64,000 bases of DNA from a virus (taxonomy: Duplodnaviria; Caudoviricetes). The notes under the pieces were generated by a model that saw nothing but the letters and a program-made list of their open reading frames with translations, did no database searches and was not told the origin of the DNA. Numbering within the stretch: the first letter of the stretch is position 1; every line of letters begins with the position of its first letter. Shown here in pieces: positions 2,665-63,803 of the stretch. The translations under genes were made by a program, and so were the position numbers. The stretch lies in the IMG/VR virus record IMGVR_UViG_3300028197_000002; one strand, given 5' to 3'.

Positions 2665-3123
2665 TTATCTGTTTTGATTAATCCAACTTGAATAGTCAGA
2701 TTTTCTATAGCCTTTCTTTTTGCTTTTTATCACTTCATTTTTAAGAATAAAAGAAGTGGGATAAGATCTTACTTTAAAACTTTTAGCTAGATCTTTTCTC
2801 TCATCAGCATTTACAAAACAAATAACGTAGTTTGTTAAATCGAAATTCCTTATTTCATTTTTTAACTTTACGCAATATCCACACCAATCTGTTCCTAAAA
2901 CAACCAATAAAGGTTTGTCTTTTGAAATCTTTAGTGCTTCTTCGTAGCTATCAGCAAAGATAGGCTCTGAAGATTTAGGTTCTTCTGAGCTTTTTGGCAT
3001 TACTATTTGAGAGTTAGAATTTTCCCAATTGCCACTTGCTCCATTTGCGTCATGCGCAGAAGTGCAGCCAATTGTAGGAATTAATACTAATGCCAATGCA
3101 ATTAAACATATTTTTTTTATCAT
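2665..3123 (-). CDS. Thioredoxin-like (lipo)protein
   Basis: Signal peptide ending IGC (lipobox-like); WCGYC redox motif; VRSYPT cis-Pro motif; AGGAGG SD. Confidence 0.8.
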   Translation of the reverse strand: MIKKICLIALALVLIPTIGCTSAHDANGASGNWENSNSQIVMPKSSEEPKSSEPIFADSYEEALKISKDKPLLVVLGTDWCGYCVKLKNEIRNFDLTNYVICFVNADERKDLAKSFKVRSYPTSFILKNEVIKSKKKGYRKSDYSSWINQNR

Positions 3124-5584: not shown

Positions 5585-6562
5585 TTAATCAATGCTACCT
5601 ATTTCTCCACCGTTGCGAGTAATAGCGCCAGCAAAGACTCTTAAATCAACATTGTCATTAATAGTTCTGGTTGATCCATCGGCATATACGCAGTTCATAA
5701 CTCCGGGATGCATACTATATGCCTCACCATCATTAATAACATTAAAAGGAACATTGCCAGAACAGTTCTTGCACTTATCACCATTGGCATCAATACCATG
5801 TAATTTAAATGGACCTAAACTATCTGCCCAACTAATGCATTGGTTAGTTCCACCTGTAGGAGATCTTCCATTACTGGCTTTATAAACATCAGGTCTACTT
5901 GCGCACTCTACAATCATAAGAGTGTTGGAAAAACCATCAATGATATCCTGTTCCTTAGTTACCTTATCTTTTATCAAACAACCATCGTCCCCAGTTTTAT
6001 TTGCATAAGGATCGCTACCAGCAGGAAAAACTTTATCTTTAACACCAGTAAATGTTTCATAGTCAGTATAACCAAGAATGTTAGGGTCTAAACTTGGAGC
6101 AGCACTATCGCTATCTCTAGTAGGCCCATCAACATTAACATAACCACCACCGGGAGGAAGTGCAGATGGACATTTTAGTACCGAGGCTTGTGTTGCAATA
6201 GCTTGAGTATTCTCCCACCAATTCTTATTAAAATCATATATGTTTGCTACATTGCCTTGCTCTAAATTTGCAAGAACAAATGCTCTCCAACTATGTTCTG
6301 TTCGTGATGGATTGCCAAGAGAACTAGGAGTTTCAGATAAATCTTTAGCCTCTATAGTCCAAGCAGCAGCAGGGAAATATTTTTTTTGATCTAAACTCAT
6401 GTGCATTGCAAGACCTTGTTGTTTTAAATTATTAGAGCAACTTGCTCGTCTTGCCGCTTCTCTAGCTTGTTGAACAGCAGGCAATAACAATCCTACTAGA
6501 ACGCCAATAATTGCAATAACCACTAGTAATTCAATCAGCGTGAAACCTTTGCGATTCTTCAT
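5585..6562 (-). CDS. DUF1559 (Planctomycete-type) prepilin N-terminal cleavage/methylation protein with H-X9-DG motif
   Basis: KG|FTLIELLVVIAIIGVLVGLLLPAVQQAREAARR..CSNNLKQ.GLAMH at the N-terminus; HPGVMNCVYADG (H-X9-DG) at the C-terminus. Confidence 0.95.
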   Translation of the reverse strand: MKNRKGFTLIELLVVIAIIGVLVGLLLPAVQQAREAARRASCSNNLKQQGLAMHMSLDQKKYFPAAAWTIEAKDLSETPSSLGNPSRTEHSWRAFVLANLEQGNVANIYDFNKNWWENTQAIATQASVLKCPSALPPGGGYVNVDGPTRDSDSAAPSLDPNILGYTDYETFTGVKDKVFPAGSDPYANKTGDDGCLIKDKVTKEQDIIDGFSNTLMIVECASRPDVYKASNGRSPTGGTNQCISWADSLGPFKLHGIDANGDKCKNCSGNVPFNVINDGEAYSMHPGVMNCVYADGSTRTINDNVDLRVFAGAITRNGGEIGSID

Positions 6563-7509: not shown

Positions 7510-9036
7510 TTATCTTCTTTTTTCTAATTCGAAAGCTCTACCGTTAGATATTAATTTCAATATATGTTTATATGCTAATTCTGGTTTCATTTTTTTAAAT
7601 CTATTGTGATGTATAGCATCTGTCACAAAAGTTTTATCTTCTCCATCTATATTAGCTAAAATTCTTCCATCTTTAATCCATCCTGACAATACTACTTTTG
7701 GGATTGAAGGCTTTGGATCAAATTGAAGTTTGAGTTGTGTGTTTTCTTCCATGTCTTCAAACTCTATTTCTGTTTCTGTAACCTTATCTTCTATTCCATG
7801 TATTATCATTTTAGAAGCCTTTGCTATATTTTGTCTCCTAGCTTTAACATCATCACCTTTAGCTCGCCATAAAGCCAAGTAATTAGGGGCATCTTTGGTT
7901 TCAAAACCAAAATGATGACAAACAACATAGGCAGTTGTCTCAGCGTCTATTTCTTTTTGTTGTCTTGAAGATTGTTTTCCCAGATCAGATTTTTTACTTT
8001 TCTTTTCAAGCCAATGAAGTATTTCATGGGCTGTCTCATGAACCAAAGTGCTAAAAAGGTTCACTCCTTTAAACTTATTGTTGATAGCTATTTTGCCACC
8101 AGCAGAGTAACCGCCTAGGTCTTCAGCCATGTCTTCATAATCAACATTTATACTTTTTTCTTTATTCCATTTTACTAAAGAATTGATAAGAACATTAAGT
8201 TCTTCTACATCTTCATTAGTATCGCTACTCCAGTCTTTTCTATCAAGTGGCTTAAAAGAACTAGGATTACCCGGAATAGGGTCTGTTGCTGAATAATCAT
8301 AAACCTTAACAGCTCTAAAAAACTTAAGTTGAACCTTTTCTTTTTCTCCTGTGCTAGGGTTTTCTTTTTCTATATTTTTAAAATTAGGAGCAAATATAAC
8401 TATGCCTTTGTCCCAATTCGTAACTGTACGTCCTAGTTTTGTCCAATTTGTAGGAGAAGAAACATGCGCAGCTTGTCCTTTTGATTGAACATATATGAGA
8501 ATTTGATTTGCCAAGCTATAATTATGGAATTTAGAAGAAAACTTTAAAAAATCTTTTATGAAACGTTGTTTTCCAGCTTCATCTGTAGAGTTGGCAACTT
8601 TTTCTATTAAGTTTTCTATATTGTCAACTAACTTTTTAAGTTTAGCATCCGTTCCTTTTTTTAGTTCTCCTTCTAGTGAGTCTTGTACGTCTTGAAAGAA
8701 ATCTTCCGTCTCTTGAGAACTTTTATTTTTTACTACACTAGAACTCGAAGGAGGACTAGTCATTGTTTTTTCTAGGCCACTTAAATCAACTCCCAAATCA
8801 ACTAAAGATTGTTTAATATTTTCGAATTTAGATACTCCAATAGACCAAGTTCCTTTGAAGTATTTTAATCCTAATTTTTTCAATTCGTTTTTTATTGGAT
8901 AGGTTGCTCCATATAAAACAACAAATTCTTTTTCGCTGAAGGACTTGGAGGAATCATATTTTGGATTTTCTTTTTTATAAACTCGAACCCCTGTCGAATC
9001 TTCTTCCTCTAAAACTAGCCACTCTGAAAATTGCAT
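7510..9036 (-). CDS. ArdC-like ssDNA-binding + HExxH metallopeptidase-domain protein
   Basis: FSSKFHNYSLANQILIY...WTKLGRTV...IFAP (ArdC N-terminal-like); TLVHETAHEILH...EIDAETTAYVVCHHFG (HExxH); start moved to ATG 9036 because of GAGGG SD and TGA-T-ATG coupling. Confidence 0.75.
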   Translation of the reverse strand: MQFSEWLVLEEEDSTGVRVYKKENPKYDSSKSFSEKEFVVLYGATYPIKNELKKLGLKYFKGTWSIGVSKFENIKQSLVDLGVDLSGLEKTMTSPPSSSSVVKNKSSQETEDFFQDVQDSLEGELKKGTDAKLKKLVDNIENLIEKVANSTDEAGKQRFIKDFLKFSSKFHNYSLANQILIYVQSKGQAAHVSSPTNWTKLGRTVTNWDKGIVIFAPNFKNIEKENPSTGEKEKVQLKFFRAVKVYDYSATDPIPGNPSSFKPLDRKDWSSDTNEDVEELNVLINSLVKWNKEKSINVDYEDMAEDLGGYSAGGKIAINNKFKGVNLFSTLVHETAHEILHWLEKKSKKSDLGKQSSRQQKEIDAETTAYVVCHHFGFETKDAPNYLALWRAKGDDVKARRQNIAKASKMIIHGIEDKVTETEIEFEDMEENTQLKLQFDPKPSIPKVVLSGWIKDGRILANIDGEDKTFVTDAIHHNRFKKMKPELAYKHILKLISNGRAFELEKRR

Positions 9037-9037
9037 A

Positions 9038-9286
9038 TCAACCCTCTTTTTCAATTTTATCTTTTTGTTCGTTTTCATTAATAAGACTTTCTTCTTCTTT
9101 TTGTCTTCTTAAAACACAAACGCATGTTGGAAACTGTGCATTCTCAGAGTAATTAGAGCCACTAGAAGGCATGCCAGTTTCTCTAATAGGCTCCCAACCA
9201 TCTGAAATTAATTTTTCAAGCGGTTTAACAGAAGTGTTCGCGTCTTCTTCTAAAGTCAAAATGACATATTTGTAATCATATTCCAT
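9038..9286 (-). CDS. Hypothetical protein
   Basis: MEYDYKYVILTL...LISDGWEPI; probable ATG 9286, no SD. Confidence 0.55.
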   Translation of the reverse strand: MEYDYKYVILTLEEDANTSVKPLEKLISDGWEPIRETGMPSSGSNYSENAQFPTCVCVLRRQKEEESLINENEQKDKIEKEG

Positions 9287-9913: not shown

Positions 9914-10762
9914 ATGGATAAAGATAAAGTTGGTTTTTGTTTCACTGGAGAAGGTGCCCGAGGAGCAATTCAAGCCGGTATTGCTTTAAGTCTTTTCAAA
10001 AAAGGGATTAAACCAGACTTTACAATAGGAATATCTTCAGGATCTATTTGTGCATCTTCTTACTGTTATCTAGGTCCCGAAGGATTAGCTGACTTATGGT
10101 CTAGCGTAAAAAGTATTTTTAGTGTTTTTAGAATTAATTATAACTTTCTTTGGAAAAGAGGGTTGATGAATCAAAAACCAATGGAAAAAATACTTTCTGA
10201 TGCAATGAAAAATGACCCTATTTGCGAAAGTGTAGTAATTCGAATGAATATAGAAGATGGGTTCATGGACTATGTATCTAATAAATCAACTACTACAGAG
10301 GAGTTCAAAGAAGCTGTTTTGGCAAGTGTTGCAATAACTTCTTTAGTTGAAGATAGAGATGGATGGGTTGATGCCGGAAGTAGACAAATCGCTCCTTTAG
10401 AACAATGTATACATTCAGGATGCAATAAAATATACGTCATAATGGGAAGAAGATTGACTATAGATCCGTGGCGTAAACCAGAAGGCTTTTTAAGCTCTCT
10501 TAAAATGGGTTTTAGAGCATTTGATATAGCGTTACAGGAAATAATGATTAGAGATATTAATCGTTGTTTGAAAAAGATAGGAGATATGGATTATAAAGGA
10601 ATTGATATTTATTTGGTTGAACCAAATGAAACTTTTTATGAATCCGCAAATTTTAAAAAATGTAAAGATGGAGTCGTTTATGGAGAAGAAGGTAATTATC
10701 ACATCCAAGACAAAAAAGCTTTACAGTTAAATAATTTTTTGAAAGGTTATGAAGATGTTTGA
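9914..10762 (+). CDS. Patatin-like phospholipase
   Basis: GEGARG (oxyanion loop), GISSG (GxSxG nucleophile), WVDAG (DGG-like Asp). Confidence 0.85.
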   Translation: MDKDKVGFCFTGEGARGAIQAGIALSLFKKGIKPDFTIGISSGSICASSYCYLGPEGLADLWSSVKSIFSVFRINYNFLWKRGLMNQKPMEKILSDAMKNDPICESVVIRMNIEDGFMDYVSNKSTTTEEFKEAVLASVAITSLVEDRDGWVDAGSRQIAPLEQCIHSGCNKIYVIMGRRLTIDPWRKPEGFLSSLKMGFRAFDIALQEIMIRDINRCLKKIGDMDYKGIDIYLVEPNETFYESANFKKCKDGVVYGEEGNYHIQDKKALQLNNFLKGYEDV

Positions 10763-12328: not shown

Positions 12329-13015
12329 TTACATTAAGTGTAGTTCTTTTTGATTGATATCATAAAACCCTCTTTCTGTTGGATCAAATAATTTACTATT
12401 CTCTCCATCAATTTTAGTAAGTTCGATATACATTGCGTCTACTGTAAATTTAACTCTCTCTACATCTTTTTTAATATCATTCGTATATCTAAGATGAGTT
12501 TTTCCTTCTTCTTGGTATTCTTCTGTAAGCGTATCTATTTCGAATTGTTCTTTGTCAACTATGGCGCAAACAGTTGCCTCATTTTTATTTTCATTTTTAT
12601 TTTTAATATACCATAATTTATGGTCGTTTTCATCCGCAATATCGGGTTTAAAAGAAATCTCAATTTTATTTTTACTTAAATTAAAATTTTCATTTGCTTT
12701 AAATCCAGCGCTATGAAGAATAAGGCAAATTTGCTCTGGAGTGGCATCTGTGGTTAATTCAAATTTCTTAGGAGTTTTATTTCTAAGGAAATCTCTAACT
12801 GTAGATCTGCACAGCAACAAGGTCTTTTTAGGCATTTTTATTTGCTTGGATGTATCATCCATTATTTCTATAGAGTTGCTTTTAGAAAAAGCTTCAATAA
12901 TAGGATTCATTTTAGAAGGAGGAACAAATCCTTCTTCTAATTTAATATATTGTTTTTTCCAATTTCCATCATCTTCGCCTTCTTTTTCTATTAAAAAATC
13001 TTTAAATTTTTTCAT
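12329..13015 (-). CDS. Degenerate CCA-adding/poly(A) polymerase head domain (pseudoenzyme)
   Basis: RSTVRDFLRNKTPKKFELTTDATPEQI aligns to GGxVRDLLLGKxPKDFDxxTxATPEQ; ERVKFTVDAMY aligns to RRDFTINAxY; ends after the head domain. Confidence 0.75.
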   Translation of the reverse strand: MKKFKDFLIEKEGEDDGNWKKQYIKLEEGFVPPSKMNPIIEAFSKSNSIEIMDDTSKQIKMPKKTLLLCRSTVRDFLRNKTPKKFELTTDATPEQICLILHSAGFKANENFNLSKNKIEISFKPDIADENDHKLWYIKNKNENKNEATVCAIVDKEQFEIDTLTEEYQEEGKTHLRYTNDIKKDVERVKFTVDAMYIELTKIDGENSKLFDPTERGFYDINQKELHLM

Positions 13016-17049: not shown

Positions 17050-20000
17050 ATGGCAGATAAAGTACCACCTGATTTTTCAGAAATACATAAATCTTTTGAT
17101 TCATTAGTAAATGCACTAAATGAAGATACTAGTGCTATAAAAGATCTGCCTGATAATATGGCAAGCGCAATGAATAATAATAAATCTTCTTTTGATAAAT
17201 CAATAGAAGATTTAGTAAAAATCATGTCTGCTCTAACGGGACTTAATGAATCAGTTTTAAAGTCATCTCAAGATGCGCAGAAGTATTTCAAAGATCTTGC
17301 AAAATCAGCAAATGACGCTAATAAAGATAGACAAAAACAAGAAAAATCTTCTGAAAAAAGTAGTCAAGATTTACTTGGAGCGGTTGAGCGCGTAGGTGAA
17401 AACGTTAATGACATGAACAAAAACCTAGAAAAATCCATATCGGGATTTGCTGAGGTTAATAACAAGAATTTTGACGACACGATGGCTCTCACGAAGGCGA
17501 TTGGTTACAAACCGTCCACATCAACGCAAGCACAAGCAGGAGCAGCAGAAGTAGCAGCAGGAGTAGCAAATCCACCACCACCTGATTTTGGGAAAGGAAG
17601 GTTTGAATTTGATGATAATGACTTTTTCAAAAGACAAGGAAATCAGTTAACTAGTTATCTCGCTCAGTTAACAGGAGGCGTAGGTCTAACTCAAGTTTTA
17701 TTTACAGGTGCTGCTAAAGACGCTTTTATATTTCAAGCCGCATTGCGAGAAGTTGCATTTGAGACTCAAGGCATAACAGGAGATACTAGAGATCTACAAG
17801 TTGCATTTGGAAAATATGGTGATGTAGTTGAAGCAACTGGAAAAAACGTAGACGAGTTTCAAAATGAATACCTTAAAAATTTAAAGAAAGGAACCAAAGC
17901 TAATCAATCTGGACTTAAGGTTATAAAATCAGGATTAGCCGCGTCAACTTTAATAGGCTCAAGTACAGAAGCAACAGCTGATCTTTTTGGTGAATGGAAT
18001 AGAACTTTAGGTCTTAGCGAAAGGCAAATGCAACAATTGTCTAGAGATTCATTGTCTGTTTCTAGAAGTACAGGCGTGACTGGCGATGAACTTGTTAATG
18101 CAATGAATGCATCTAAAAAGATTTTAGAAAATTTAAGAAATCAAGGAAATCTCACAAGCCTTGCAATGAAAAATGTAATTGGCATGTCTGCTGAGGCTCA
18201 AAAAGTAGGCGTAGGAGATGCCTATATGAAAATTGCAAATGCTCTATCAAGTACAAATTCATTATTAGAATCTACAAGTGATGCGACTGGAGGTTATCTT
18301 CTTAGTGTAGGAGCTGCTATTGGGAAAACGGGAACCATGCTTGAAGGAACCTTCATGCAGTCAAGAAAAAATTTAGGTTCTTTAGCTTCAGGAATGGAAG
18401 GAACTTTAAAAAGACTGACCGGCGATGTTGGAATGACGTTTGAGCAGATAGGAAATCTGAGTGTTAAAGAACGACAAAGACTTTCTATACAGCTAAAAGG
18501 ATTAACTGGCATGGAACTTACTGAGTTCCAAAGAGTTGGAGAAACGTTTCGAAAGCAATCTAGAGGCATAGCAGGAACGCTAAAAGATCTTGAAGACGAA
18601 ATGAAAAATACCAACATGACAGCCGAGGAAAGAGTAAAGGCTGAAGCAGATTATGCAAATGCACTAAGCAACCAAGGACTTGCGGCATCAACAGCTTTTG
18701 ATAAATCCCTTAAAGCAATTGATCCAAATGCTTTTGGAAGCAAGATGAAAGCTTTTGAATCAGCAACTGGAAGTTTTGTTGATGATTTAAAGCAAAGCGG
18801 AAATCTTGGAGAATTTAGAGAAGATTTGTCTGCTGCGATTGGAGGTTTGGCTAGTAAAGATGTAGGCATCGAGATTAATGGTCAAAAGATAACACAAGAT
18901 GTATTAAAAGGATTAGATCCTATTAATAATGCTGGAGATGCCGCATTGATGATGGGAGCGCAGCAACTTGCTGCTGCCGAATCTTTGAAATTAGCTGCTG
19001 AGAAGAATAAAATTGATCTTAAAGACATGGGATTAGATGCTGATTTTTCAAGCAAACTTAAAAAAGCCATAGAAAGTGGAGATACTTTAAGAATAAGAGA
19101 GATAAATGATGAGATGTCTACTGCCGCTCAAAAAATGGGAGTTGACTTAAAAAAAGGAACAAGCCCTACAAGTGAGTTAAGTAATGCTCTTAACAAGCTT
19201 AATCAGACAATAAGAAATTTAACTTCTGGTCCTCTTATGATGTTTTTAGATATGTTGGGAGGCATGGGTTTACTTTTAACTATATTAGGTGGAACAGCAG
19301 TAGCTGCTGGTTTTGGTCTGTATCAGTCAGCTAAAATGTTCAGTTTAGGTTCAGCAGCTCTGACCAAAGGTTTGAGTGCTATGGGTTTGAAAAAACAAGC
19401 CCTTGCAGTACACAAGAATTCCAAAACTATTAATCGTGCTGTCGGAAGTGTAGAGAAATCAGTGGGCAATGCGGCTGCGAATATAAAAACAGGTACAAGA
19501 TCAATTTTTGAGCCATTCACTAAAGGATTCTCAAGAGCAAGATCTCAAGGACAAGGTTTTTTCAAATCACTAGATCGAGGTCTAGGAGGACTGATTCAAT
19601 CAAGTAACAAAACTAGAGGACTTATGAAGCTCCCAAGTGCTGTTTACAACACGTTTGATTCAGTAGGAAAAGGAATCACACAAATTACAAATCCTGTAGC
19701 TCAAGGTGCAAAAAATATATTTAAACCTTTTGGGACAGGTTTCAAAACAGCAACGTCTCAAGGCGCAGGATTCTTCGAATCTTTAGGAAAAGGTTTCAAA
19801 TCACAAGGATTATCAAGTTATTTTAAAACAGCTAGTAAAGCTAGCACAGCTTATGCTAACTCTTTAACTAAAATAGGACAAGCTCAAAATTATTTAATTA
19901 GAAATGGATCAAACGCATTAAATGTTATAAAATCGTCAGGCGCAAGTACTTTGTCTTCTTTGAAATCTACTGGCTCTTCTGCTGTTAAAACCATCACCTC

Positions 20001-23000
20001 TAAAACAACAGATATGTTTGGAGCTTTTGGAAAAGGATTTACACGAGCAAGATCAGCAGGAGATGGATTCTTTAAATCTTTGATAAGAGGATTTAAAGGT
20101 GGGTCTATGACATTAGGAACAGTACAAAAAGGAGTAAGAGGTGTTGGTACTGTAAAAGCAGGTATTAGCTCGGCAAGAGCAGGCCTTGCTGCTAGAGGTG
20201 GAATAAAAGGACTAGCAAAAGCCGCAGATGCAAAAGCTCTTGTTGGATTTACTAAAACTTTAAGCGCAGGAAAATCTGGACTCAAACTAGCAACCGGTGG
20301 TATTAAAGGCTTGTTTAAAGCTATAAGTACCGCTGGTAAAAGTTTTCCTCCTTTAGCTATTGCTCTTGCTGCCATTGATGGCATCATAGGCGGGTTTATG
20401 GGCTTTTCTAGAACTGCTGGTAGGTTTGAAAAAGATTTTGGCGAATTAAATGCTGGAATGTATGCGTCTTCGACTGTAGCCGGTGTTTTAGTTGGAATAT
20501 TAGACGGTCTAACTTTTGGACTACTTAATTTCTCAGGTGTTGGTAGAGCTTTGGAAGATTACTTGGCTTATTCTATCAATACTATAATGGGTCTTTTCTA
20601 CGGAATGGTAGATGGAATTAAAGCGGCATTTTCTTTAGTAAGCAATGCATTTAGTGGAATAGGAGAACAGTTTGCAAGAATAGGACAAACAGTATTAGGC
20701 GCATTTAATAAAATATTTGGAATATTTGGAGTACAGGCAGACAGCATGGGAGGCATGTTTGCAATACTTTATGATGTTATGAAGGCAATTGGAAAGCCTA
20801 TAGGATTTATAATAGGACTTCCTTTGGCTGCAACATTTTTTGTTTTAGGAAAAGCAATAAGCTTGCTTATTGTTCCTATAGAAATTTTAGCAAATTTAAT
20901 ATCTGCTGCTGTTGATGTTGTTGTTGGTTTTAGTAAAGCCATATATGGACTTCTCACTTTTGATTTCGATATGATTGGTGCAGGATTCAAGCAAATTTTT
21001 GGTGGGTTGTATGATGCAGTAGCAGGAACTATTGGCCCTATAGTAAATTGGGTATCAGGAGTATTTACTGGATTATACGACATTGTAGCTGGAACTGTTG
21101 GTCCTGCACTTGATTGGCTTAAATGGGCATTTGGAGGAATATATGCTTTTATCGCTCCTATAGTAGTAGCTATTGGAACCGTAATTTCCACCGTATTTGG
21201 TGCAATATACAAAACAGTTAGTTATATTGCTAATGCAATAGCCTCCGTAATTTCCACCGTATTAAGTCCTATAGTAAATTTGGTATCAGGAGTATTTACT
21301 GGAATATACAATACCATCGCAAAAACTCTTGGAGGTATTGTAGATTGGTTTAGTTGGTTGTGGAAAACATTAGTAGGAGGTTCTATAGTTCCTGACATGG
21401 TTACAGGAATTATAAATTGGTTTTTAAAACTACCACAAAAAATATTCTCTGCTTTAATGACCATACCAAAAATGATTGGAAATGTTTTTTCTAATATTGG
21501 TTCTTATCTTTCTAGTTTTGGAACAGAAAGTTACTTTGGAACCTTAATGTCTCAAATAGGAAATGTATTTAGTTTTATTGGAAGCACTATATCAAATGTT
21601 GTCGGAGCTTTGCAAGGAGTATTTAATATATTCTATGGAATAGCTACTTTGGACTTTGGAAAAATATGGGAAGGCATAGTAGGCATAGGCGCCGCCATAG
21701 GAAATCAAATCAAAGACATAGGTAAGTTTTTATATGCAGGAATTAAAAATTCAGTTTCTTATCTTTTCAAAGTTTTAAAAAGAATTCCTGCCACAATCTT
21801 CAGAGTTTTAAAATCAACTTTCATAGCATTTCCTAAGTGGTTGTTAGGAAAAGTTATGGATGTTGCTTATCTATTTGGAACCTTCTTGGCACGAATACCA
21901 GAAATGCTCTACAAAGGAATTGTAAAAACTATAAAAAGAATAGGAGAATTTTTATACAACGCGTTTATGTGGCCTTTTAGAAAAATAGCTGAGTTTGCAA
22001 CATTTATTTATGACAAGGTCGTTGGGCTATTAAATAAAACACTCGAATTCTTTATGGATATTCCGGGACATGTAGGAGCTGGAATTTCTGCTTTGTGGGA
22101 GGGATTGTCAGGCTTAGGAGGAATGATATTAGATGGATTGGCAGGCTTAGGAGGAATGATATTAGGTGGATTGAAATCTGTTTTTGTAGATTTTCCAAGC
22201 TGGTTGCTTAGTAGCATAATTTCTGGACTTGGAAATTTAGGGGGAATGATATTAGGTGGATTGAAATCTGTTTTTGTAGATTTCCCAAGCTGGTTGCTTA
22301 GTAACATGATTTCTGGACTTGGAAATTTAGGGGGAATGCTAGCAGACGGTATTAAATCTGCTTTTTCAAGTATTGGTAATATTGCATCTTCAATAGGACA
22401 ATCAATACTAGATGGAATCTATAATGTTTTTGTAGGATTTCCAACTTGGCTATATGACCAATTCACAGGAGCTTTATCCGGTGTGTGGGATTACATAAAA
22501 AGTTGGATTCCGGGAATGGGAGCCATAGATGGTTATAATGAATCATCAGTTGCTCAAGAAGCAACTAGATTGCAAGAAGGAAATAGTATGCTCCATGCAG
22601 GAGGAGCAGCTGTTGGCGGTGTTGGTGATATACTAACTGGTGACTTTAGCGAAGGAGCATCTAAAGTTGGGGGAGCTATAAAAGAAGGAGTATACGCTGC
22701 TGGAGAAACTATATCTGATGCTGCTAATGGTGCTTGGGAAGGAGCAAAGGCAGTCGGATCTTATCTAAACCCTTTCAATTACTTTAATGAAGGAACAAGA
22801 CAAATACAGCAAACTGGATTGGCCATGCTTCATGAAGGCGAAATGGTTGTTCCAAAAAATATAACTAATATGGTTGCTGAAGGAAATGGAGTATTCCCAA
22901 GTTTGTCTTCAGCTTTCTCAGGAGTTTTCGCAGGTCTTGGAGACATGCTAACAAACCCTCTCGGCACAGCGAAAAATACTTTAGGTGGCATAAAAAACAT

Positions 23001-23865
23001 GTCGAGTATGTTTTCAAACGTAATAGATCCTTTGGGAATAGGAAAGATTACAGGAGACATGCTAACAAACCCTCTTGGCACAGCGAAAAATGATTTAGGT
23101 GGCATAGAAAACATATCGAGTATGTTTTCAAACGTAATAGATCCTTTGGGAATAGGAAAGATTGCAGGAGACATACTAACAGATCCTCTTGGCACAGCAA
23201 AAAATGCTTTAGGTGGAATTAAAAATTTGTTTTCTAACAAAGAGCCAAATGAAATAGCATCTAAAGAATTACCTTCAACTATTGTTCAAAAACATGGCAC
23301 AATGCCAGTTTTAATTATGAACTGGTCTGAGATAGCGAATGCCATGGGCATAAAAGAACCAAGTGCACCAGAAATTTCATTAGGTAAAATATTAGAAAAC
23401 ATAGGCCCACAAATTATGTCTCCTCTTGGATTGCTTGAATCCATAGGTCTTCCGGGAATTGGAAACATTGGAAGTGCAATAAGTTATTTTGGAAACGAAC
23501 CAGAAACAGCAACTCCATTAGACATGCAACCTGCACCATTAACAGATGTAGGTCAATCAATAGTCAAAGAAAGAACTTCTTCACAAGCTGGCGTCGGGAA
23601 GCTTCAAAGCGATGAGTTAACAAGAATGGAAGAAGCTTCTAATAAACAAGTGAGTGAATTAGAACAAATTAATCAAGGAATACAAGATCTAGTAGGATTT
23701 ATGCGTCCAACCGGAGGTGGAGCAACAGAATCTTCTTCTAGTGACGCTATAATAGGAGATACAAAAAATACTAGAGTTCCTAGGAACTCACCAATATTTG
23801 GAACAATGAAGTATGGATATGCTTCAGGAGGACCAAATAGACAAATTATAAATGATGGTAAATAA
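17050..23865 (+). CDS. Tail tape-measure-like protein (2271 aa)
   Basis: Long Ala/Gly-rich amphipathic helical protein with aromatic periodicity and hydrophobic segments; LAMLHEGEMVVP motif; immediately upstream of baseplate genes. Confidence 0.85.
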   Translation: MADKVPPDFSEIHKSFDSLVNALNEDTSAIKDLPDNMASAMNNNKSSFDKSIEDLVKIMSALTGLNESVLKSSQDAQKYFKDLAKSANDANKDRQKQEKSSEKSSQDLLGAVERVGENVNDMNKNLEKSISGFAEVNNKNFDDTMALTKAIGYKPSTSTQAQAGAAEVAAGVANPPPPDFGKGRFEFDDNDFFKRQGNQLTSYLAQLTGGVGLTQVLFTGAAKDAFIFQAALREVAFETQGITGDTRDLQVAFGKYGDVVEATGKNVDEFQNEYLKNLKKGTKANQSGLKVIKSGLAASTLIGSSTEATADLFGEWNRTLGLSERQMQQLSRDSLSVSRSTGVTGDELVNAMNASKKILENLRNQGNLTSLAMKNVIGMSAEAQKVGVGDAYMKIANALSSTNSLLESTSDATGGYLLSVGAAIGKTGTMLEGTFMQSRKNLGSLASGMEGTLKRLTGDVGMTFEQIGNLSVKERQRLSIQLKGLTGMELTEFQRVGETFRKQSRGIAGTLKDLEDEMKNTNMTAEERVKAEADYANALSNQGLAASTAFDKSLKAIDPNAFGSKMKAFESATGSFVDDLKQSGNLGEFREDLSAAIGGLASKDVGIEINGQKITQDVLKGLDPINNAGDAALMMGAQQLAAAESLKLAAEKNKIDLKDMGLDADFSSKLKKAIESGDTLRIREINDEMSTAAQKMGVDLKKGTSPTSELSNALNKLNQTIRNLTSGPLMMFLDMLGGMGLLLTILGGTAVAAGFGLYQSAKMFSLGSAALTKGLSAMGLKKQALAVHKNSKTINRAVGSVEKSVGNAAANIKTGTRSIFEPFTKGFSRARSQGQGFFKSLDRGLGGLIQSSNKTRGLMKLPSAVYNTFDSVGKGITQITNPVAQGAKNIFKPFGTGFKTATSQGAGFFESLGKGFKSQGLSSYFKTASKASTAYANSLTKIGQAQNYLIRNGSNALNVIKSSGASTLSSLKSTGSSAVKTITSKTTDMFGAFGKGFTRARSAGDGFFKSLIRGFKGGSMTLGTVQKGVRGVGTVKAGISSARAGLAARGGIKGLAKAADAKALVGFTKTLSAGKSGLKLATGGIKGLFKAISTAGKSFPPLAIALAAIDGIIGGFMGFSRTAGRFEKDFGELNAGMYASSTVAGVLVGILDGLTFGLLNFSGVGRALEDYLAYSINTIMGLFYGMVDGIKAAFSLVSNAFSGIGEQFARIGQTVLGAFNKIFGIFGVQADSMGGMFAILYDVMKAIGKPIGFIIGLPLAATFFVLGKAISLLIVPIEILANLISAAVDVVVGFSKAIYGLLTFDFDMIGAGFKQIFGGLYDAVAGTIGPIVNWVSGVFTGLYDIVAGTVGPALDWLKWAFGGIYAFIAPIVVAIGTVISTVFGAIYKTVSYIANAIASVISTVLSPIVNLVSGVFTGIYNTIAKTLGGIVDWFSWLWKTLVGGSIVPDMVTGIINWFLKLPQKIFSALMTIPKMIGNVFSNIGSYLSSFGTESYFGTLMSQIGNVFSFIGSTISNVVGALQGVFNIFYGIATLDFGKIWEGIVGIGAAIGNQIKDIGKFLYAGIKNSVSYLFKVLKRIPATIFRVLKSTFIAFPKWLLGKVMDVAYLFGTFLARIPEMLYKGIVKTIKRIGEFLYNAFMWPFRKIAEFATFIYDKVVGLLNKTLEFFMDIPGHVGAGISALWEGLSGLGGMILDGLAGLGGMILGGLKSVFVDFPSWLLSSIISGLGNLGGMILGGLKSVFVDFPSWLLSNMISGLGNLGGMLADGIKSAFSSIGNIASSIGQSILDGIYNVFVGFPTWLYDQFTGALSGVWDYIKSWIPGMGAIDGYNESSVAQEATRLQEGNSMLHAGGAAVGGVGDILTGDFSEGASKVGGAIKEGVYAAGETISDAANGAWEGAKAVGSYLNPFNYFNEGTRQIQQTGLAMLHEGEMVVPKNITNMVAEGNGVFPSLSSAFSGVFAGLGDMLTNPLGTAKNTLGGIKNMSSMFSNVIDPLGIGKITGDMLTNPLGTAKNDLGGIENISSMFSNVIDPLGIGKIAGDILTDPLGTAKNALGGIKNLFSNKEPNEIASKELPSTIVQKHGTMPVLIMNWSEIANAMGIKEPSAPEISLGKILENIGPQIMSPLGLLESIGLPGIGNIGSAISYFGNEPETATPLDMQPAPLTDVGQSIVKERTSSQAGVGKLQSDELTRMEEASNKQVSELEQINQGIQDLVGFMRPTGGGATESSSSDAIIGDTKNTRVPRNSPIFGTMKYGYASGGPNRQIINDGK
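22147..22338 (+). repeat. 90-nt tandem duplication inside the tape measure gene
   Basis: LGGMILGGLKSVFVDFPSWLLS..ISGLGN x2 plus start of a third copy; near-identical DNA. Confidence 0.9.
22939..23226 (+). repeat. 114-nt tandem repeat (about 2.5 copies) inside the tape measure gene
   Basis: GDMLTNPLGTAKN.LGGI.N.SSMFSNVIDPLGIGKI units start at 22939, 23053 and 23167. Confidence 0.9.
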
Positions 23866-34293: not shown

Positions 34294-34548
34294 ATGAAAA
34301 GAAAAGTTTTATTTGAAATCAGAAGATTTAATGGCGAAGATTTAATTTTTATTGATAATCAATATTTTGATTTTGCAATAGATGATTCTTCTTTAGAAAA
34401 AGTTAATTCTTTAGAAGGCGAAGAATTAGAAAAAGTTCATGAAAATATTAAAAATTATCTTCTAACATCACTTGCTCAGGTTCTAGGCAGAGCAGTAGCA
34501 ATGAAAGAAGTTATGGAGGCTATTAAAACAGGCTATATACAACTATGA
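34294..34548 (+). CDS. Hypothetical protein
   Basis: 84 aa in the tail operon. Confidence 0.55.
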   Translation: MKRKVLFEIRRFNGEDLIFIDNQYFDFAIDDSSLEKVNSLEGEELEKVHENIKNYLLTSLAQVLGRAVAMKEVMEAIKTGYIQL

Positions 34549-35024
34549 TGCTAGTAGAAGAAAAGGACAAAAGGTTCTACATAAAAGAATCAAATATAAA
34601 AGATGCAGGAATGGGAGTTTTTGCTTCTGAGGATATCAAAAAAGAGTCTTATCTAGAAATAATAGGAGTCATGGTCAATGTAGGTTCGGTTTCGGATCAA
34701 TGCACTGATTTTGCAAAAGACTATAAATTTGCAGCTCAATATGAAGATAAATATACAAGACATATTATTCCAATGGGTTATGCGGCAATAATCAATCACG
34801 CGACAGAAGAAAAAGATCAAAATGCTACAATAAGATTTATAAATAAAAATAATAAGAACCCAGCCGCTTCTTCTGCTGTTTATTTTTTCACAAAAGATAT
34901 AAAAAAAGATGACGAAATATTGGGAAATTATGGAGAAAAATGGCAAACTAGAATTGCAGAAGATGCTGACTGGCAAATGTTTTTAGATTTAGAACTATAT
35001 AATTTAAAGAAATTAAAAAGATAA
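34545..35024 (+). CDS. SET-domain protein-lysine methyltransferase
   Basis: SNIKDAGMGVFASEDIKK (motif I), IINHA (NHS motif), KDIKKDDEILGNYG (GEEL..DY motif). Confidence 0.85.
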   Translation: MMLVEEKDKRFYIKESNIKDAGMGVFASEDIKKESYLEIIGVMVNVGSVSDQCTDFAKDYKFAAQYEDKYTRHIIPMGYAAIINHATEEKDQNATIRFINKNNKNPAASSAVYFFTKDIKKDDEILGNYGEKWQTRIAEDADWQMFLDLELYNLKKLKR

Positions 35025-47876: not shown

Positions 47877-48896
47877 ATGGCAATAGGATTTGACGCAGGA
47901 ACTTATCATTTAGTTAGTTGTAAAAAACAAGGCGAAGAATATATTTACAAAAAAGAGGTAAATGCTTTTTTGGAAATGCCTTTAGAAAACAGATTTGTTT
48001 TCAATATGATGAACAACGCAGGAGTCCCTTTAATCGAAAACAAAGAAGCAAATGTTGCTTACGCTCTTGGTGAAAAGGCTGTAGATATGGCTTACACTAT
48101 GAATCAAATAGAACTTAAAAGGCCTATGAAAGATGGATGCTTAAATCCAAAAGAAAGACATGCGCAACAAATAATGAATGTTATGGCGCATAGTCTCATA
48201 GGAGAGATTTCGCAAAATGAAGAAAAGTTGTATTACTCTGTCCCTGCAAATGCTATAAATCAAGAAACTGACGCTGATTATCACTCTAAGATATTGCAAG
48301 CAATGTTCAAAGCTTACGAAAGTGAGCAAGGCTTTAAAGTTGATGCATATCCTATTAATGAAGCTTTGGCTTTAGTGTATGCTGAGTTAACAAATAAAAA
48401 TTGGACTGGAATTGGAATTTCTTTTGGCGCTGGAATGGTGAATCTTTGTTACGCTATTTATGGAGCGCCAATTTTTCAGTTTTCTTTAGTTAACAGTGGA
48501 GATTGGATTGACAAGATGGCTTCAAAAGCAATAGGTGAAGATACTACCACTTATGTAAACAAAGAAAAAATGAAATCTGATCTAACTATTGATCAACCTG
48601 ATACGCTTGTTCAAAGAGCAATCAAAACTCAGTACGAGATCATGATTCAACACACAGTCAATGGAATAAAACAAGGTTTAGAAAATGCTGGAAACAAAGC
48701 AAGATCAGAGGAACCTATTGACATAGTAATTGCTGGCGGTACTAGTATGCCAGTTGGATTCGAAAAAATGTTTTCTACAATATTAGAGCAATCAGGTATT
48801 TCTGATAACATTAAAGTCGGCTCTGTAATTCGACCAAACGACCCTTTGTTCTCTGTGGCCAGAGGATGTTACATCGCAGCTGAAAACGCAACTTAA
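47877..48896 (+). CDS. Actin-fold ATPase (MreB/FtsA/ParM superfamily)
   Basis: Phosphate-1 IGFDAGT, connect-1 INEALA, phosphate-2 GISFGAGM, adenosine IVIAGGTSM, connect-2 FSVARGC; GAGGTG SD. Confidence 0.85.
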   Translation: MAIGFDAGTYHLVSCKKQGEEYIYKKEVNAFLEMPLENRFVFNMMNNAGVPLIENKEANVAYALGEKAVDMAYTMNQIELKRPMKDGCLNPKERHAQQIMNVMAHSLIGEISQNEEKLYYSVPANAINQETDADYHSKILQAMFKAYESEQGFKVDAYPINEALALVYAELTNKNWTGIGISFGAGMVNLCYAIYGAPIFQFSLVNSGDWIDKMASKAIGEDTTTYVNKEKMKSDLTIDQPDTLVQRAIKTQYEIMIQHTVNGIKQGLENAGNKARSEEPIDIVIAGGTSMPVGFEKMFSTILEQSGISDNIKVGSVIRPNDPLFSVARGCYIAAENAT

Positions 48897-57697: not shown

Positions 57698-58435
57698 ATG
57701 GATGTTTCTGTACTGGTTCAAACTTGCGATAAATATGAAAAATATTGGCAAGGGTTTTTTTATTACATGGATATTTTTTGGGACAAAAAAATAAATTGTC
57801 CAATATATTTTTGCAATCAAAATAAAAAAATTGTCACTGAAAGTGATCTGAACATCATCAACATAAACGCAGGGGAAGGAACTTTTGTAGAAAATCTTAA
57901 ATTTGCTTTAGAAAAAATAAAGACTAAATATGTCTTTTATATGTTGGAAGACTTTTGGCCAATTAGAAACTTCGAGGCAGATCTTTTCAAATCACTTTGC
58001 GAAATAATAGAAAAAGAAAAAATTAAATCTCTTCAAGTTAGCCCCATAACAAAATACTATTCTTTAGAAAAAACCTCAATCAGTTTAGATAATTTAAACT
58101 TAATGAAATTTAAAAAAACAAGTGAATGGATTTTTAATTTTCAATCTAGATTTTGGGACAAAGAGTTACTTTTGAATTCTTTACGCGAACCAGACGTGTC
58201 AGAATCTTTAGTAAGTTCAGCAATAACAGTTGAAGATAAAATAAATAAAATATTTGATAGAGATGTTGATTGTTATCTCTATCAGCATTTTTGGTATCCT
58301 CTTAGTGGGGTTTGCTACAGAGGAGAATTTACAGGATTAGGCAAAGAGCTGAACAATAACATGTTGGTTGATTTATATGGAAAACACATAAGTCACCAAT
58401 CTTCTCCATCAAGTTCGCACAAGTCTGTGTCATAA
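57698..58435 (+). CDS. GT-A-fold glycosyltransferase-like protein
   Basis: VLVQTCDKY...W and YVFYMLEDFW (acidic motif at the DxD position). Confidence 0.5.
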   Translation: MDVSVLVQTCDKYEKYWQGFFYYMDIFWDKKINCPIYFCNQNKKIVTESDLNIININAGEGTFVENLKFALEKIKTKYVFYMLEDFWPIRNFEADLFKSLCEIIEKEKIKSLQVSPITKYYSLEKTSISLDNLNLMKFKKTSEWIFNFQSRFWDKELLLNSLREPDVSESLVSSAITVEDKINKIFDRDVDCYLYQHFWYPLSGVCYRGEFTGLGKELNNNMLVDLYGKHISHQSSPSSSHKSVS

Positions 58436-58818
58436 TCATTCTCATCGTCGTCGTCGTCATTGTTATCATCCCATTCTCCATCATACCCATCGTCGTCATC
58501 TTCATCTTCTGCCCAATCCTCATCATCTGACCAGTCCTCATCGTCGTCGTCTTCGTCTTCATCCCAGTCGTCGTCTTCATCATCTATGTTCATTGTGTCG
58601 TCGTCGTCATCTTCACCGACCTCTTGCCAATCGGCATAGCCATCGTCATCATCGTCGTCGTCTTCATCGTCGTCGTCGTCTTCATCTTCATCGTCTTCAT
58701 ATTCATAATCATCAAAATTTGAAATGCATTTTGCAGATCCGTTTTCTAGATCTTCATACCAGCCTGACTCATCGTCATAAATATCACCTTCATGAAAAAC
58801 TTTATCTATGCAAGACAT
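58393..58818 (-). CDS. Extremely acidic Asp/Glu-rich protein
   Basis: AGGAG SD; majority D/E interspersed with W/Y; start ATG 58818 or TTG 58824. Confidence 0.7.
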   Translation of the reverse strand: MSCIDKVFHEGDIYDDESGWYEDLENGSAKCISNFDDYEYEDDEDEDDDDDEDDDDDDDGYADWQEVGEDDDDDTMNIDDEDDDWDEDEDDDDEDWSDDEDWAEDEDDDDGYDGEWDDNNDDDDDENDYDTDLCELDGEDW

Positions 58819-58978
58819 TTCCAACTACGCTCCTGTAATAATAATTATGATTATATTTGCTTTTTATCTATTCATTTGATTCATTTTTTTATTAGGAAAA
58901 AGTAATTTTACTTCATTGCAATTTCCTAATTTTTCTAATACTATAAAATATAGTAGATTTAGTCAATTTAAAGCTAAA

Positions 58979-60403: not shown

Positions 60404-60453
60404 AATTGCACCTCCATGTGACATAATCGTAATCTATAGTCTTATATACTGTT

Positions 60454-60903
60454 ATGAATAAAAATTTCATTTCTAACAAAGAACTAGTAGAATACAAAAA
60501 ATTTGCTTTAAAAGAAGACATGTTGAAAATGTCTACTGCTTTTATATTAGGAGGTGCATTTAATAGTGTTGTAAAAGGAATATCAGATATTTTGATAATG
60601 CCTTTTATAAATTTTATTATATTGCAAACAGGAGAATCTTGGAGAACATTTAAAATAGAGCCAGTTACAGGATTGGTAATAGAGTTAGGTAAATTTTTAG
60701 GCGTGTCGGTTGATTTCATATTAATATCAATAATACTCTACGTATTTTATATGAAAATACTAAAAAACATAAAACTAAAAGAAGAATTTGAAATTAAATG
60801 TGTAGAAACAAAGACTTGCAGATTATGCAAAAGTTCAATCCATTACGAAGCAACTAAATGTCCAGAATGCACTGGTGATATTGGAGAAATTATAGATGAA
60901 TAG
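60454..60903 (+). CDS. mscL: MscL-like large-conductance mechanosensitive channel with C-terminal zinc ribbon
   Basis: EYKKFAL...AFILGGAFNSVV...DILIMP (TM1), IELGKFLGVSVDFILI (TM2), then TKTCRLCKSSIHYEATKCPECTG. Confidence 0.8.
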   Translation: MNKNFISNKELVEYKKFALKEDMLKMSTAFILGGAFNSVVKGISDILIMPFINFIILQTGESWRTFKIEPVTGLVIELGKFLGVSVDFILISIILYVFYMKILKNIKLKEEFEIKCVETKTCRLCKSSIHYEATKCPECTGDIGEIIDE

Positions 60904-61549
60904 TCCTGAAGACTTTGAAAAAAGAATAAAAGAAGAAAGAACTCTAGAGGCAAATAAAAAAGGTATTATTGGACCAAGTGGAAAAATAGCCACCATATTA
61001 AGAAATCTTGGAGAGCCTATAGTAGGACAAACTGAAGATTCGATTTATGATTATAATTATGATTATGACATGAACAATCATAATTCAATTCATGAAGTAA
61101 CTAACTCCAAAGATTTAACAAAAAAAATACCCACAATGAACATGGATGAAGGAACAAGGCCCAATTCAGAAGAATCACTTCGCATTGATTCAATAGAATC
61201 TCTATACTCGGGCAACATGCCAGAAGAATTTAATTTTTCAACTAGGGAAATTGGATATTATTTTGAAGGCCTTAATAGAGGAATGCATTTAGAAATAAAA
61301 TACGATGAGTACACTTCTGAACTCATCGTAAATTATAAAGGCTATATTGTTTACAAAGAAGCAAAAGGGGATCTTTTAGCGTACTCCCCACAAGAAGAGT
61401 GGGAAGCGCATATAGAAAAGCTTTACAAAGAAGCAAAAAGAAAACAAATCAAAGGCAAAGAATCAGAATTTGAAAATTCTTTAAAAAATAATGAAAAACA
61501 GAAAGATAATTGGCTTCAAAAAATGAAAAGCAAATGGGGAATTACATAA
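60896..61549 (+). CDS. Hypothetical protein
   Basis: 217 aa; overlaps the MscL-like gene stop. Confidence 0.6.
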   Translation: MNSPEDFEKRIKEERTLEANKKGIIGPSGKIATILRNLGEPIVGQTEDSIYDYNYDYDMNNHNSIHEVTNSKDLTKKIPTMNMDEGTRPNSEESLRIDSIESLYSGNMPEEFNFSTREIGYYFEGLNRGMHLEIKYDEYTSELIVNYKGYIVYKEAKGDLLAYSPQEEWEAHIEKLYKEAKRKQIKGKESEFENSLKNNEKQKDNWLQKMKSKWGIT

Positions 61550-63335: not shown

Positions 63336-63803
63336 TTAAACATTAGAAAGCATCATTCTAATGTGATCTGCGTCTTTTCTGCTATCGAGTATCTGATCTT
63401 CTAAGAAAAGTTCTATGTATTTTCCATCAATAGCATCTTCGCCACCATTCTCTTGTAATTTACAAGCCTGTTCAATCCTTGCAACATAATTTGAAACAAC
63501 GTCATCTTCCATTTTTAAAGCTGCTTTTAAGATTTTAGAGCAATCACTTAAATTATTATTAAAAGGAGCAATTTCAGTAAAGACTTTGAAATCTAAATTT
63601 CTTCTTTCAATTAGCCCATGCAAAAGCCTTTTGAAGGCTTCAACATGACCCATTTCGTCTTTAGATTGCTCTAGCAAAAATTCGCCAATTTCTTCTCTAT
63701 GAAATCCTTTAATAGAAGTAGCTGCTTGAAGATAAAAATTCCAATGGCTATATTCTCTTGAAAGATCTTTTAGTAGAAGTTCAACTATTTCATTAATGTC
63801 CAT
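63336..63803 (-). CDS. Ferritin/bacterioferritin-like protein
   Basis: Di-iron ligand spacing: REYSH (E), DEMGH (ExxH), MEDDVVSNY (E), DADH (D/ExxH). Confidence 0.85.
   Translation of the reverse strand: MDINEIVELLLKDLSREYSHWNFYLQAATSIKGFHREEIGEFLLEQSKDEMGHVEAFKRLLHGLIERRNLDFKVFTEIAPFNNNLSDCSKILKAALKMEDDVVSNYVARIEQACKLQENGGEDAIDGKYIELFLEDQILDSRKDADHIRMMLSNV

Follow-up and report, generated by a model that had tools for sequence, protein, structure and literature searches.

Published truncation work on MscL shows that assembly and mechanosensitivity do not require the C-terminal helical bundle, which nevertheless tunes threshold and conductance. MtMscL deprived of its C-terminus is still a pentamer and still mechanosensitive, and MaMscL naturally lacks a cytoplasmic C-terminal domain (PMC6167328), so that the bundle is not a defining feature of the family. 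For viruses, one report (PMC6163359) lists MscL-like genes of putative function in Tetraselmis virus 1 and Cafeteria roenbergensis virus, and a second describes MscL genes on estuarine-coastal Caudoviricetes contigs as relatively more abundant with salinity (PMC13288924). Here we analyzed an MscL-family gene in a 64-kb stretch of DNA (64 000 nt, in the following called the window) from an uncultured marine T4-like jumbo phage with a genome of at least 372 kb, and compared its gate, its cytoplasmic tail and its genomic surroundings with those of its relatives.

The window encodes a member of the MscL family

A sequence-only reading of the window, made without database searches, had proposed an MscL homologue in the frame that we call P0001 (Table 1), which is open and intact according to its translation. 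The Pfam HMM search confirmed this assignment: residues 12–113 matched profile positions 3–103 of the 123 positions of MscL (PF01741) with 61.5 bits (E = 1.2e-16), above the curated cut-off of 27.4 bits. Sequence matches in the PDB comprised all solved MscLs, with 4y7k on top (E = 1.4e-11), followed by 3hzq, 2oar and the E. coli entries. The library homology search gave 1265 matches at E ≤ 1e-3, and 16 close homologues share 50–91% identity with P0001. The PHROG family phrog_25692, annotated as function unknown, matched residues 12–140 with the tail included (E = 3e-15) and has the same architecture over this range, from which it follows that phage copies of this architecture have already been clustered. 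Database matches labeled ‘Listeria phage’ and ‘Staphylococcus phage’ were set aside, as these fragments carry no annotation and could stem from host DNA.

Table 1. Features of the MscL gene and its surroundings (positions in the window)
Feature	Position	Strand	Evidence
MscL-family gene P0001, 149 aa	60454..60903	+	Pfam PF01741, PDB sequence matches, Foldseek
N-terminal amphipathic S1 helix, residues 8–18	60475..60507	+	AF2 (helix 8–18); includes F17, corresponding to E. coli F10
Hinge E21-D22-M-L-K25 (canonical G-N-V-V-D)	60514..60528	+	Alignments, charge covariation
TM1 pore-lining helix, residues 21–56	60514..60621	+	AF2 (helix 21–56), column counts
Hydrophobic constriction M26/A29/F30	60529..60543	+	Alignment, column counts
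Periplasmic loop, T-G-x-x-W-R motif and beta hairpin	60622..60684	+	AF2 (strands 68–71 and 74–76)
TM2 lipid-facing helix, residues 78–103	60685..60762	+	AF2 (helix 78–103)
Charged cluster K-L-K-E-E, residues 107–111	60772..60786	+	BLASTP, opposite E. coli R104-K-K-E-E108
Cys-rich cytoplasmic tail, C115 and C121xxC124-x11-C136xxC139	60796..60870	+	Tail alignment, AF2
TATATA box, 6–11 nt upstream of the MscL start	60443..60448	+	Within the 29-nt divergent intergenic gap
ORF217, soluble orphan	60896..61549	+	Synteny; 19 homologues
ORF481, thermolysin-like gluzincin, 481 aa	58979..60424	-	HELGH ... HEAFSD motifs; weak PF01447 (M4), E = 0.012
ORF124, tail-anchored membrane protein with C-terminal hydrophobic helix	61542..61916	-	Translation, synteny

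The AF2 model, calculated from an alignment of 149 relatives, has a mean pLDDT of 84 and the S1/TM1/hairpin/TM2 topology of MscL followed by a small C-terminal beta ribbon. Foldseek placed it next to 4y7k (E = 1.5e-4, prob 1.0), 2oar and 3hzq, with prob values of 0.99–1.0. The predicted MscL fold and the phage context of the gene support the proposed phage-borne homologue. P0001 keeps the landmarks F17, G33, F36, P50, D87-F88 and the KLKEE cluster. F17 is nearly invariant (157 of 166 relatives), as is F88, which together with D87 lies opposite E. coli D84-F85 in the BLASTP alignment, and the loop residues T59, G60, W63 and R64 are invariant across the phage clade. We also considered a T4-like capsid-targeting tag at the N-terminus and rejected it: the only agreement in P0001 is M-N-K-x-F, and the acidic-W/F-L core is missing, while other ORFs in the genome begin with M-[KN]-x-F-x-[ED]-[WF]-L.

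Hinge and constriction are variable within the family

For the N-terminal half, BLASTP against MscL of E. coli K-12 (b3291) sets residue n of P0001 opposite residue n-7 of E. coli, and alignments to the S. aureus and M. tuberculosis channels gave the same register. In this register R13 is replaced by K20, G14 by E21, N15 by D22, D18 by K25, L19 by M26, G22 by A29 and V23 by F30, while G26 and F29 are retained as G33 and F36. The residues given in the sequence-only reading, E/D/K for the hinge G14/N15/D18 and M/A/F for the constriction L19/G22/V23, are therefore correct. Its conclusion that the gate is ‘rewired’ was not supported, since the substitutions at the constriction are common among 166 relatives and the M. 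acetivorans structure 4y7k has L/A/F at this site and Y/K/P instead of G14/N15/D18 at the hinge.

The column counts, which cover 166 proteins from two homology searches, document this variability. Alanine is the majority state at the G22 column (A 89, G 65), and at the V23 column phenylalanine was counted 68 times, valine 57 times and isoleucine 19 times. The L19 column contains 74 leucines and 57 methionines, and M/A/F is the constriction state seen most often in this set. At the hinge we found G 91 times in column G14, followed by K, E and D, N 91 and D 40 times in column N15, and D 63 and K 38 times in column D18. P0001 reads K-E-D-M-L-K-M-S where the consensus of the E. coli, S. aureus and M. 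tuberculosis channels gives the canonical TM1 signature K/R-G-N-[ILVM]2-D-[LM]-A. This signature is not universal, because M. acetivorans MscL lacks it and 75 of the 166 relatives lack G14.

Within the phage clade the L19 site is occupied by M or I only, the G22 site by A, G or S, and the V23 site by F or I only. The constriction is hydrophobic clade-wide, which is the pattern that a resting-closed channel would show. By regarding the hinge more closely we observed opposite charges at positions 21 and 25: acidic/basic pairs occur in 25 sequences, basic/acidic pairs in 10 and pairs of the same sign in 2, counts that come from related sequences and are not independent events. As both positions lie in the first turn of TM1 at a spacing of i, i+4 and their charges covary, the pattern is that of a salt bridge, and E21/K25 probably form one at the start of TM1. 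The charge-swapped pair can be viewed as a natural experiment on the junction between S1 and TM1, where gating is set, and it is cheap to test.

A predicted zinc-ribbon tail in place of the helical bundle

The C-terminal helical bundle of MscL is absent from P0001. Behind a T-K dipeptide, the counterpart of E. coli T116-K117, the tail reads C121-R-L-C124 ... C136-P-E-C139, and translation, AF2 model and alignment to E. coli MscL agree with the earlier description of a CxxC...CxxC ribbon that replaces the cytoplasmic helix. In the model this part forms a small beta ribbon with strands 119–121 and 128–130 and a pLDDT of ~95 (residues 121–140). An alignment of 40 tails shows no variation at the four ribbon cysteines, and a fifth cysteine, C115, is conserved within the phage clade. 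Scores against the Pfam zinc-ribbon models remained below threshold for the P0001 tail (DZR 14.4 bits, zf-C3HC4_3 16 bits) and likewise for the cellular tails (25 bits with UPF0547 and Zn_ribbon_3). Judged from its cysteine pattern and the model, we regard the tail as a Cys4 zinc ribbon with a putative metal site.

Such tails are widespread: a C-terminal CxxC...CxxC was counted in 91 of the 166 relatives, many of them with the canonical K-G-N-V-M-D-L-A-V-G gate. One cluster annotated as MscL, from Lachnospiraceae, Eubacterium and Bilifractor porci (WP_154458077.1), carries the tail T-K-L-C-P-Y-C-K-S-E-I-P-V-D-A-T-R-C-P-H-C-T-S, which is clearly homologous to the phage tail, and another ribbon-tailed canonical MscL is flanked by a histidine kinase and an NDH-2 gene and hence stands in a cellular context. 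Using a TM2-plus-ribbon alignment as query against one genome per prokaryotic species, we found ribbon-tailed MscL in at least 595 cellular species (595 of 600 listed stretches were confirmed); among the matches listed, most belong to Clostridia (Oscillospiraceae, Lachnospiraceae, Ruminococcus, Acutalibacteraceae), cultured isolates included. Since canonical MscLs from Lachnospiraceae, Oscillospiraceae and numerous further cellular genomes carry this tail as well, the ribbon is not a phage invention. Taken together, neither the gate substitutions nor the hinge change nor the ribbon is phage-specific. Our literature search for MscL paired with a zinc ribbon or zinc finger found no published description. 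The tail marks a branch, very large and apparently unstudied, of a channel that itself ranks among the best studied.

The cytoplasmic tail of the phage-type subfamily seems to be exchangeable, to judge from one relative: P0054 (L097:909-1508), a phage-type MscL relative of 199 aa, has a tail with helix-hairpin-helix (HhH) matches and no zinc ribbon. The contigs of P0054 and of two further relatives, P0044 and P0066, are too short to tell phage from cell.

The gene is conserved in position and sequence in a phage lineage

Using tblastn we found a conserved block of ORF481, MscL, ORF217, ORF124, ORF290 and ORF93 in 11 loci, with MscL identities of 36–81%. The contigs with this block are 135–372 kb long and also carry T4-type portal, terminase and baseplate genes; MscL relatives were located on contigs of 135–333 kb, and an identical copy of ORF217 on a contig of 372 493 bp. 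The window itself contains T4-type baseplate genes (gp25, wedge, spike OB domain), PKD-bearing fibers, a primase and a PD-(D/E)XK nuclease, and the large terminase and the T4-type portal were found on related contigs. Two peptide patterns recovered eight IMG/VR contigs, and a 37%-identical ribbon-tailed MscL occurs in another phage-like context (Kyano_Gp96, DUF5856).

Compared with a 79%-identical orthologue, the MscL gene shows dN = 0.127 at a saturated dS of ~2.8, which results in dN/dS ~0.045. The gene is under strong purifying selection. From this value and from the conservation of the block across loci we conclude that MscL is a long-standing, selected gene of the phage lineage, and almost certainly a genuine one. 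MscL is typically a cellular gene and phages acquire such genes, so that a recently captured host copy, useless to the phage or already decaying, has to be weighed as well. Such a copy would not be expected to hold its position and sequence over a deep phage clade at dN/dS ~0.05, nor to retain an intact frame with all landmark residues. The pattern scan of cellular genomes also found no phage-type copy, a result bound to the search patterns used, which therefore does not prove that cells lack one. We disfavor this explanation and consider it hardly credible.

Several other genes of the window deserve mention. An actin-fold protein at 47877-48896 (+) matches Pfam Volactin (PF25216, E = 3.6e-64) and represents an archaeal-type actin homologue in a jumbo phage. 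At 5585-6562 (-) a prepilin-type N-terminal methylation motif is combined with DUF1559 (SBP_bac_10, E = 1.6e-40); this family is greatly expanded in Planctomycetota, which gives a hint of a PVC-group host. The 143-aa ORF at 58393-58824 (-) consists almost entirely of Asp/Glu runs, and its low-complexity DNA matches hundreds of unrelated metagenomic contigs. A SET-domain methyltransferase lies amid the tail-fiber genes (34545-35024, +), and an ORF of 2271 aa precedes the baseplate module (17050-23865, +). The minus strand further encodes a ferritin-like protein (63336-63803), a thioredoxin with a lipoprotein-like N-terminus (2665-3123), a poly(A) polymerase/CCA-adding head domain (12329-13015) and an anti-restriction-like protein (7510-9078, phrog_7245). 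In a related phage the T4-type portal gene is interrupted by inteins (L003:19096-20501, L004:11101-12506; product of 1260 aa) with matches to Intein_splicing and, faintly, LAGLIDADG_3.

ORF217 and the possibility of a regulated channel

The gene directly behind MscL, ORF217, is co-oriented with it and overlaps its stop by 8 nt in the window, and the pair is kept in all syntenic loci. Neither ORF217 itself (Pfam, PHROG) nor its 19 homologues (Pfam) could be assigned to a known domain or family. Its predicted fold (AF2, pLDDT 73) gave structure rows in the Atlas that all had TM < 0.4 and no usable Atlas feature match, helical look-alikes with a best Z of 5.0 in VIA-align, and nothing at E ≤ 1e-3 in BFVD.

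This arrangement leads to an alternative in which the five ribbon tails of a pentamer would bind ORF217, nucleic acid or a metal/redox signal, so that gating or pore filtering would follow the state of infection and not tension alone. Consistent with it are the invariant ribbon cysteines, the extra Cys115 of the phage clade, the 8-nt overlap within a gene pair that is kept over 36–81% identity, and the related phage-type MscLs with other tails such as the HhH tail of P0054. On the other hand, ORF217 has no recognizable fold or family, and the same ribbon is found on at least 595 cellular MscLs without ORF217, which makes a structural role as replacement of the helical bundle the simpler explanation. 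ORF217, the fifth cysteine and the ribbon give a hint of regulation beyond plain tension gating; as an account of the channel we regard the regulated form as unlikely, though with some real chance of being right.

A further step would be a virus-adapted subfamily, marked jointly by the acidic/basic hinge pair, the M/F gate, Cys115, the ribbon and a translationally coupled ORF217, in which a phage factor or the redox/metal state would set opening through a ring of ribbons under the pore. We consider this very unlikely. If true, it would amount to a switchable large pore for lysis timing, dumping of host solutes or exclusion of competitors, and thus to a new class of phage membrane effector derived from a mechanosensitive channel.

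Expression and the question of lysis

A TATATA or TATAAT-like box was observed 6–25 nt upstream of the MscL start (the limit being ~25 nt) in 9 of 10 orthologous loci. Boxes of the form TATA[TA]A precede 17 of the 63 genes of the window, which is only ~1.8 times a rough estimate from base composition. In the sigma-70 promoter scan the number of promoter-like sites did not exceed that in shuffled sequence, and the accompanying terminator scan found none. A metatranscriptome contig of 161 nt is identical to 60477-60637 and covers part of the MscL gene; this is a weak hint of transcription, as RNA libraries can carry DNA.

The conserved box resembles the T4 late promoter core, and this fits a second alternative, in which P0001 would act as a lysis or depolarization device, either holin/pinholin-like or akin to the chlorovirus virion K+ channel. 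Opened late by a trigger other than tension, it would collapse the membrane potential or release solutes and in this way time lysis or block superinfection. The earlier statement that no canonical holin-endolysin pair was recognized in the window was corroborated and belongs on the same side: Pfam revealed no lysozyme, amidase, endolysin, other peptidoglycan hydrolase or holin family, neither among the neighbors of MscL nor elsewhere in the 64 kb. Moreover, the conserved block includes the metallopeptidase ORF481 and the tail-anchored ORF124, and the ribbon together with the co-operonic orphan ORF217 could provide a non-mechanical trigger. However, the lack of a lysis cassette carries little weight, as the 64-kb window makes up less than one-fifth of the genome, and lysis genes may be located elsewhere. 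ORF481, the divergent neighbor of MscL in all related loci, has no obvious signal peptide and is M4-like, and to our knowledge M4-type peptidases are not known endolysins. In addition, the clade-wide hydrophobic constriction resembles that of closed tension-gated MscLs, and cellular MscLs without a lysis role have the ribbon and the gate residues as well. A lysis or depolarization device is therefore unlikely in our view. As a separate observation, the window encodes a patatin-like phospholipase at 9914-10762 (+) (PF01734, E = 1.2e-10), a lipid hydrolase that could be relevant to membrane disruption, with no recognized lysis cassette in the window.

A proposed phage-made turgor valve

Our joint reading, towards which we lean slightly, is that P0001 is a functional member of the MscL family that serves as a phage-made, tension-gated solute valve in the host membrane and protects the infected cell. 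Each subunit would consist of an N-terminal amphipathic helix, two transmembrane helices and the cytoplasmic zinc-ribbon tail, and by homology the subunits would form a homo-oligomer, most likely a pentamer, with a pore across the host cytoplasmic membrane and an N-in/C-in orientation. E21/K25, with their probable salt bridge, stand in for the canonical G14/D18 and the ribbon takes the place of the helical bundle, while the hydrophobic M26/F30 constriction would hold the pore closed until membrane tension opens it. By analogy with the family, P0001 probably gates in this manner. Made during infection as the phage's own emergency valve, the channel would open at near-lytic tension and release solutes, as we infer from other MscLs, and so avert early bursting before the virions are finished, be it under osmotic downshift or under turgor that is driven by the long infection of a jumbo phage.

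Turgor protection as the role of P0001 is an even call for us, and it is favored over lysis or depolarization. The sequence-only reading had put forward an altered tension sensitivity, with osmoprotection, depolarization or lysis as candidate roles. It is not obvious what a phage would gain from a copy, given the stable salinity of the open ocean and the MscL and MscS that hosts normally possess themselves. Marine or seawater metagenomes from 14 studies contain the stretch. A role as turgor valve fits the reported salinity trend of Caudoviricetes MscL genes (PMC13288924). An active channel would provide a clear example of a tailed phage that brings its own turgor-relief valve. Osmotic and mechanical homeostasis would then join the host functions taken over by jumbo phages, and there would be a functional handle on MscL genes for which counts from marine viromes already exist.

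Comparison with known systems

Among the viral systems, the estuarine Caudoviricetes MscL resembles P0001 as a viral MscL copy of putative function, in its marine Caudoviricetes context and in its reading as osmoregulation (PMC13288924). The proteins of Tetraselmis virus 1 and Cafeteria roenbergensis virus have ~101 aa and are very weakly similar to cellular MscLs (PMC6163359). In their available parts both reports stay at the level of annotation, with no mention of gate residues, ribbon or synteny. The ribbon-tailed MscLs of Clostridia and others, for example those of Bilifractor porci (WP_154458077.1), Lachnospira pectinoschiza M83 and Longicatena caecimuris DSM 29481, have the same tail, T-K-x-C-P-x-C-x-S-x-I-x3-A-x-x-C-P-x-C-T behind an A-P-T-T-K linker, but differ from P0001 by their canonical K-G-N-V-M-D-L-A-V-G gate and their chromosomal location.

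With the canonical channels (E. coli b3291, M. tuberculosis 2OAR, S. aureus 3HZQ) P0001 has in common the S1/TM1/periplasmic loop/TM2 topology, the residues F10, G26 and F29, the I-M-P motif, D84-F85, an RKKEE-like cluster and hydrophobic L19 and V23 sites. It differs from them by an identity of 23% to E. coli MscL, by E/D/K in place of G14/N15/D18, by an N-terminal extension of 7 residues, by the Cys4 ribbon predicted in place of the helical bundle, and by being phage-encoded. The best match in both sequence and structure is M. acetivorans MscL (4Y7K/4Y7J; E = 1.4e-11, Foldseek prob 1.0), which likewise has A-F at G22/V23, no G-N-x-x-D signature, a G-x-x-W loop and no helical bundle, whereas it shows ~31% identity, lacks the zinc ribbon and is an archaeal cellular gene. 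Taken together, P0001 is a phage copy of a known channel and not a new kind of channel, and it combines two natural, little-studied variants: a charge-paired hinge with an M/F gate, and a putative zinc-ribbon tail.
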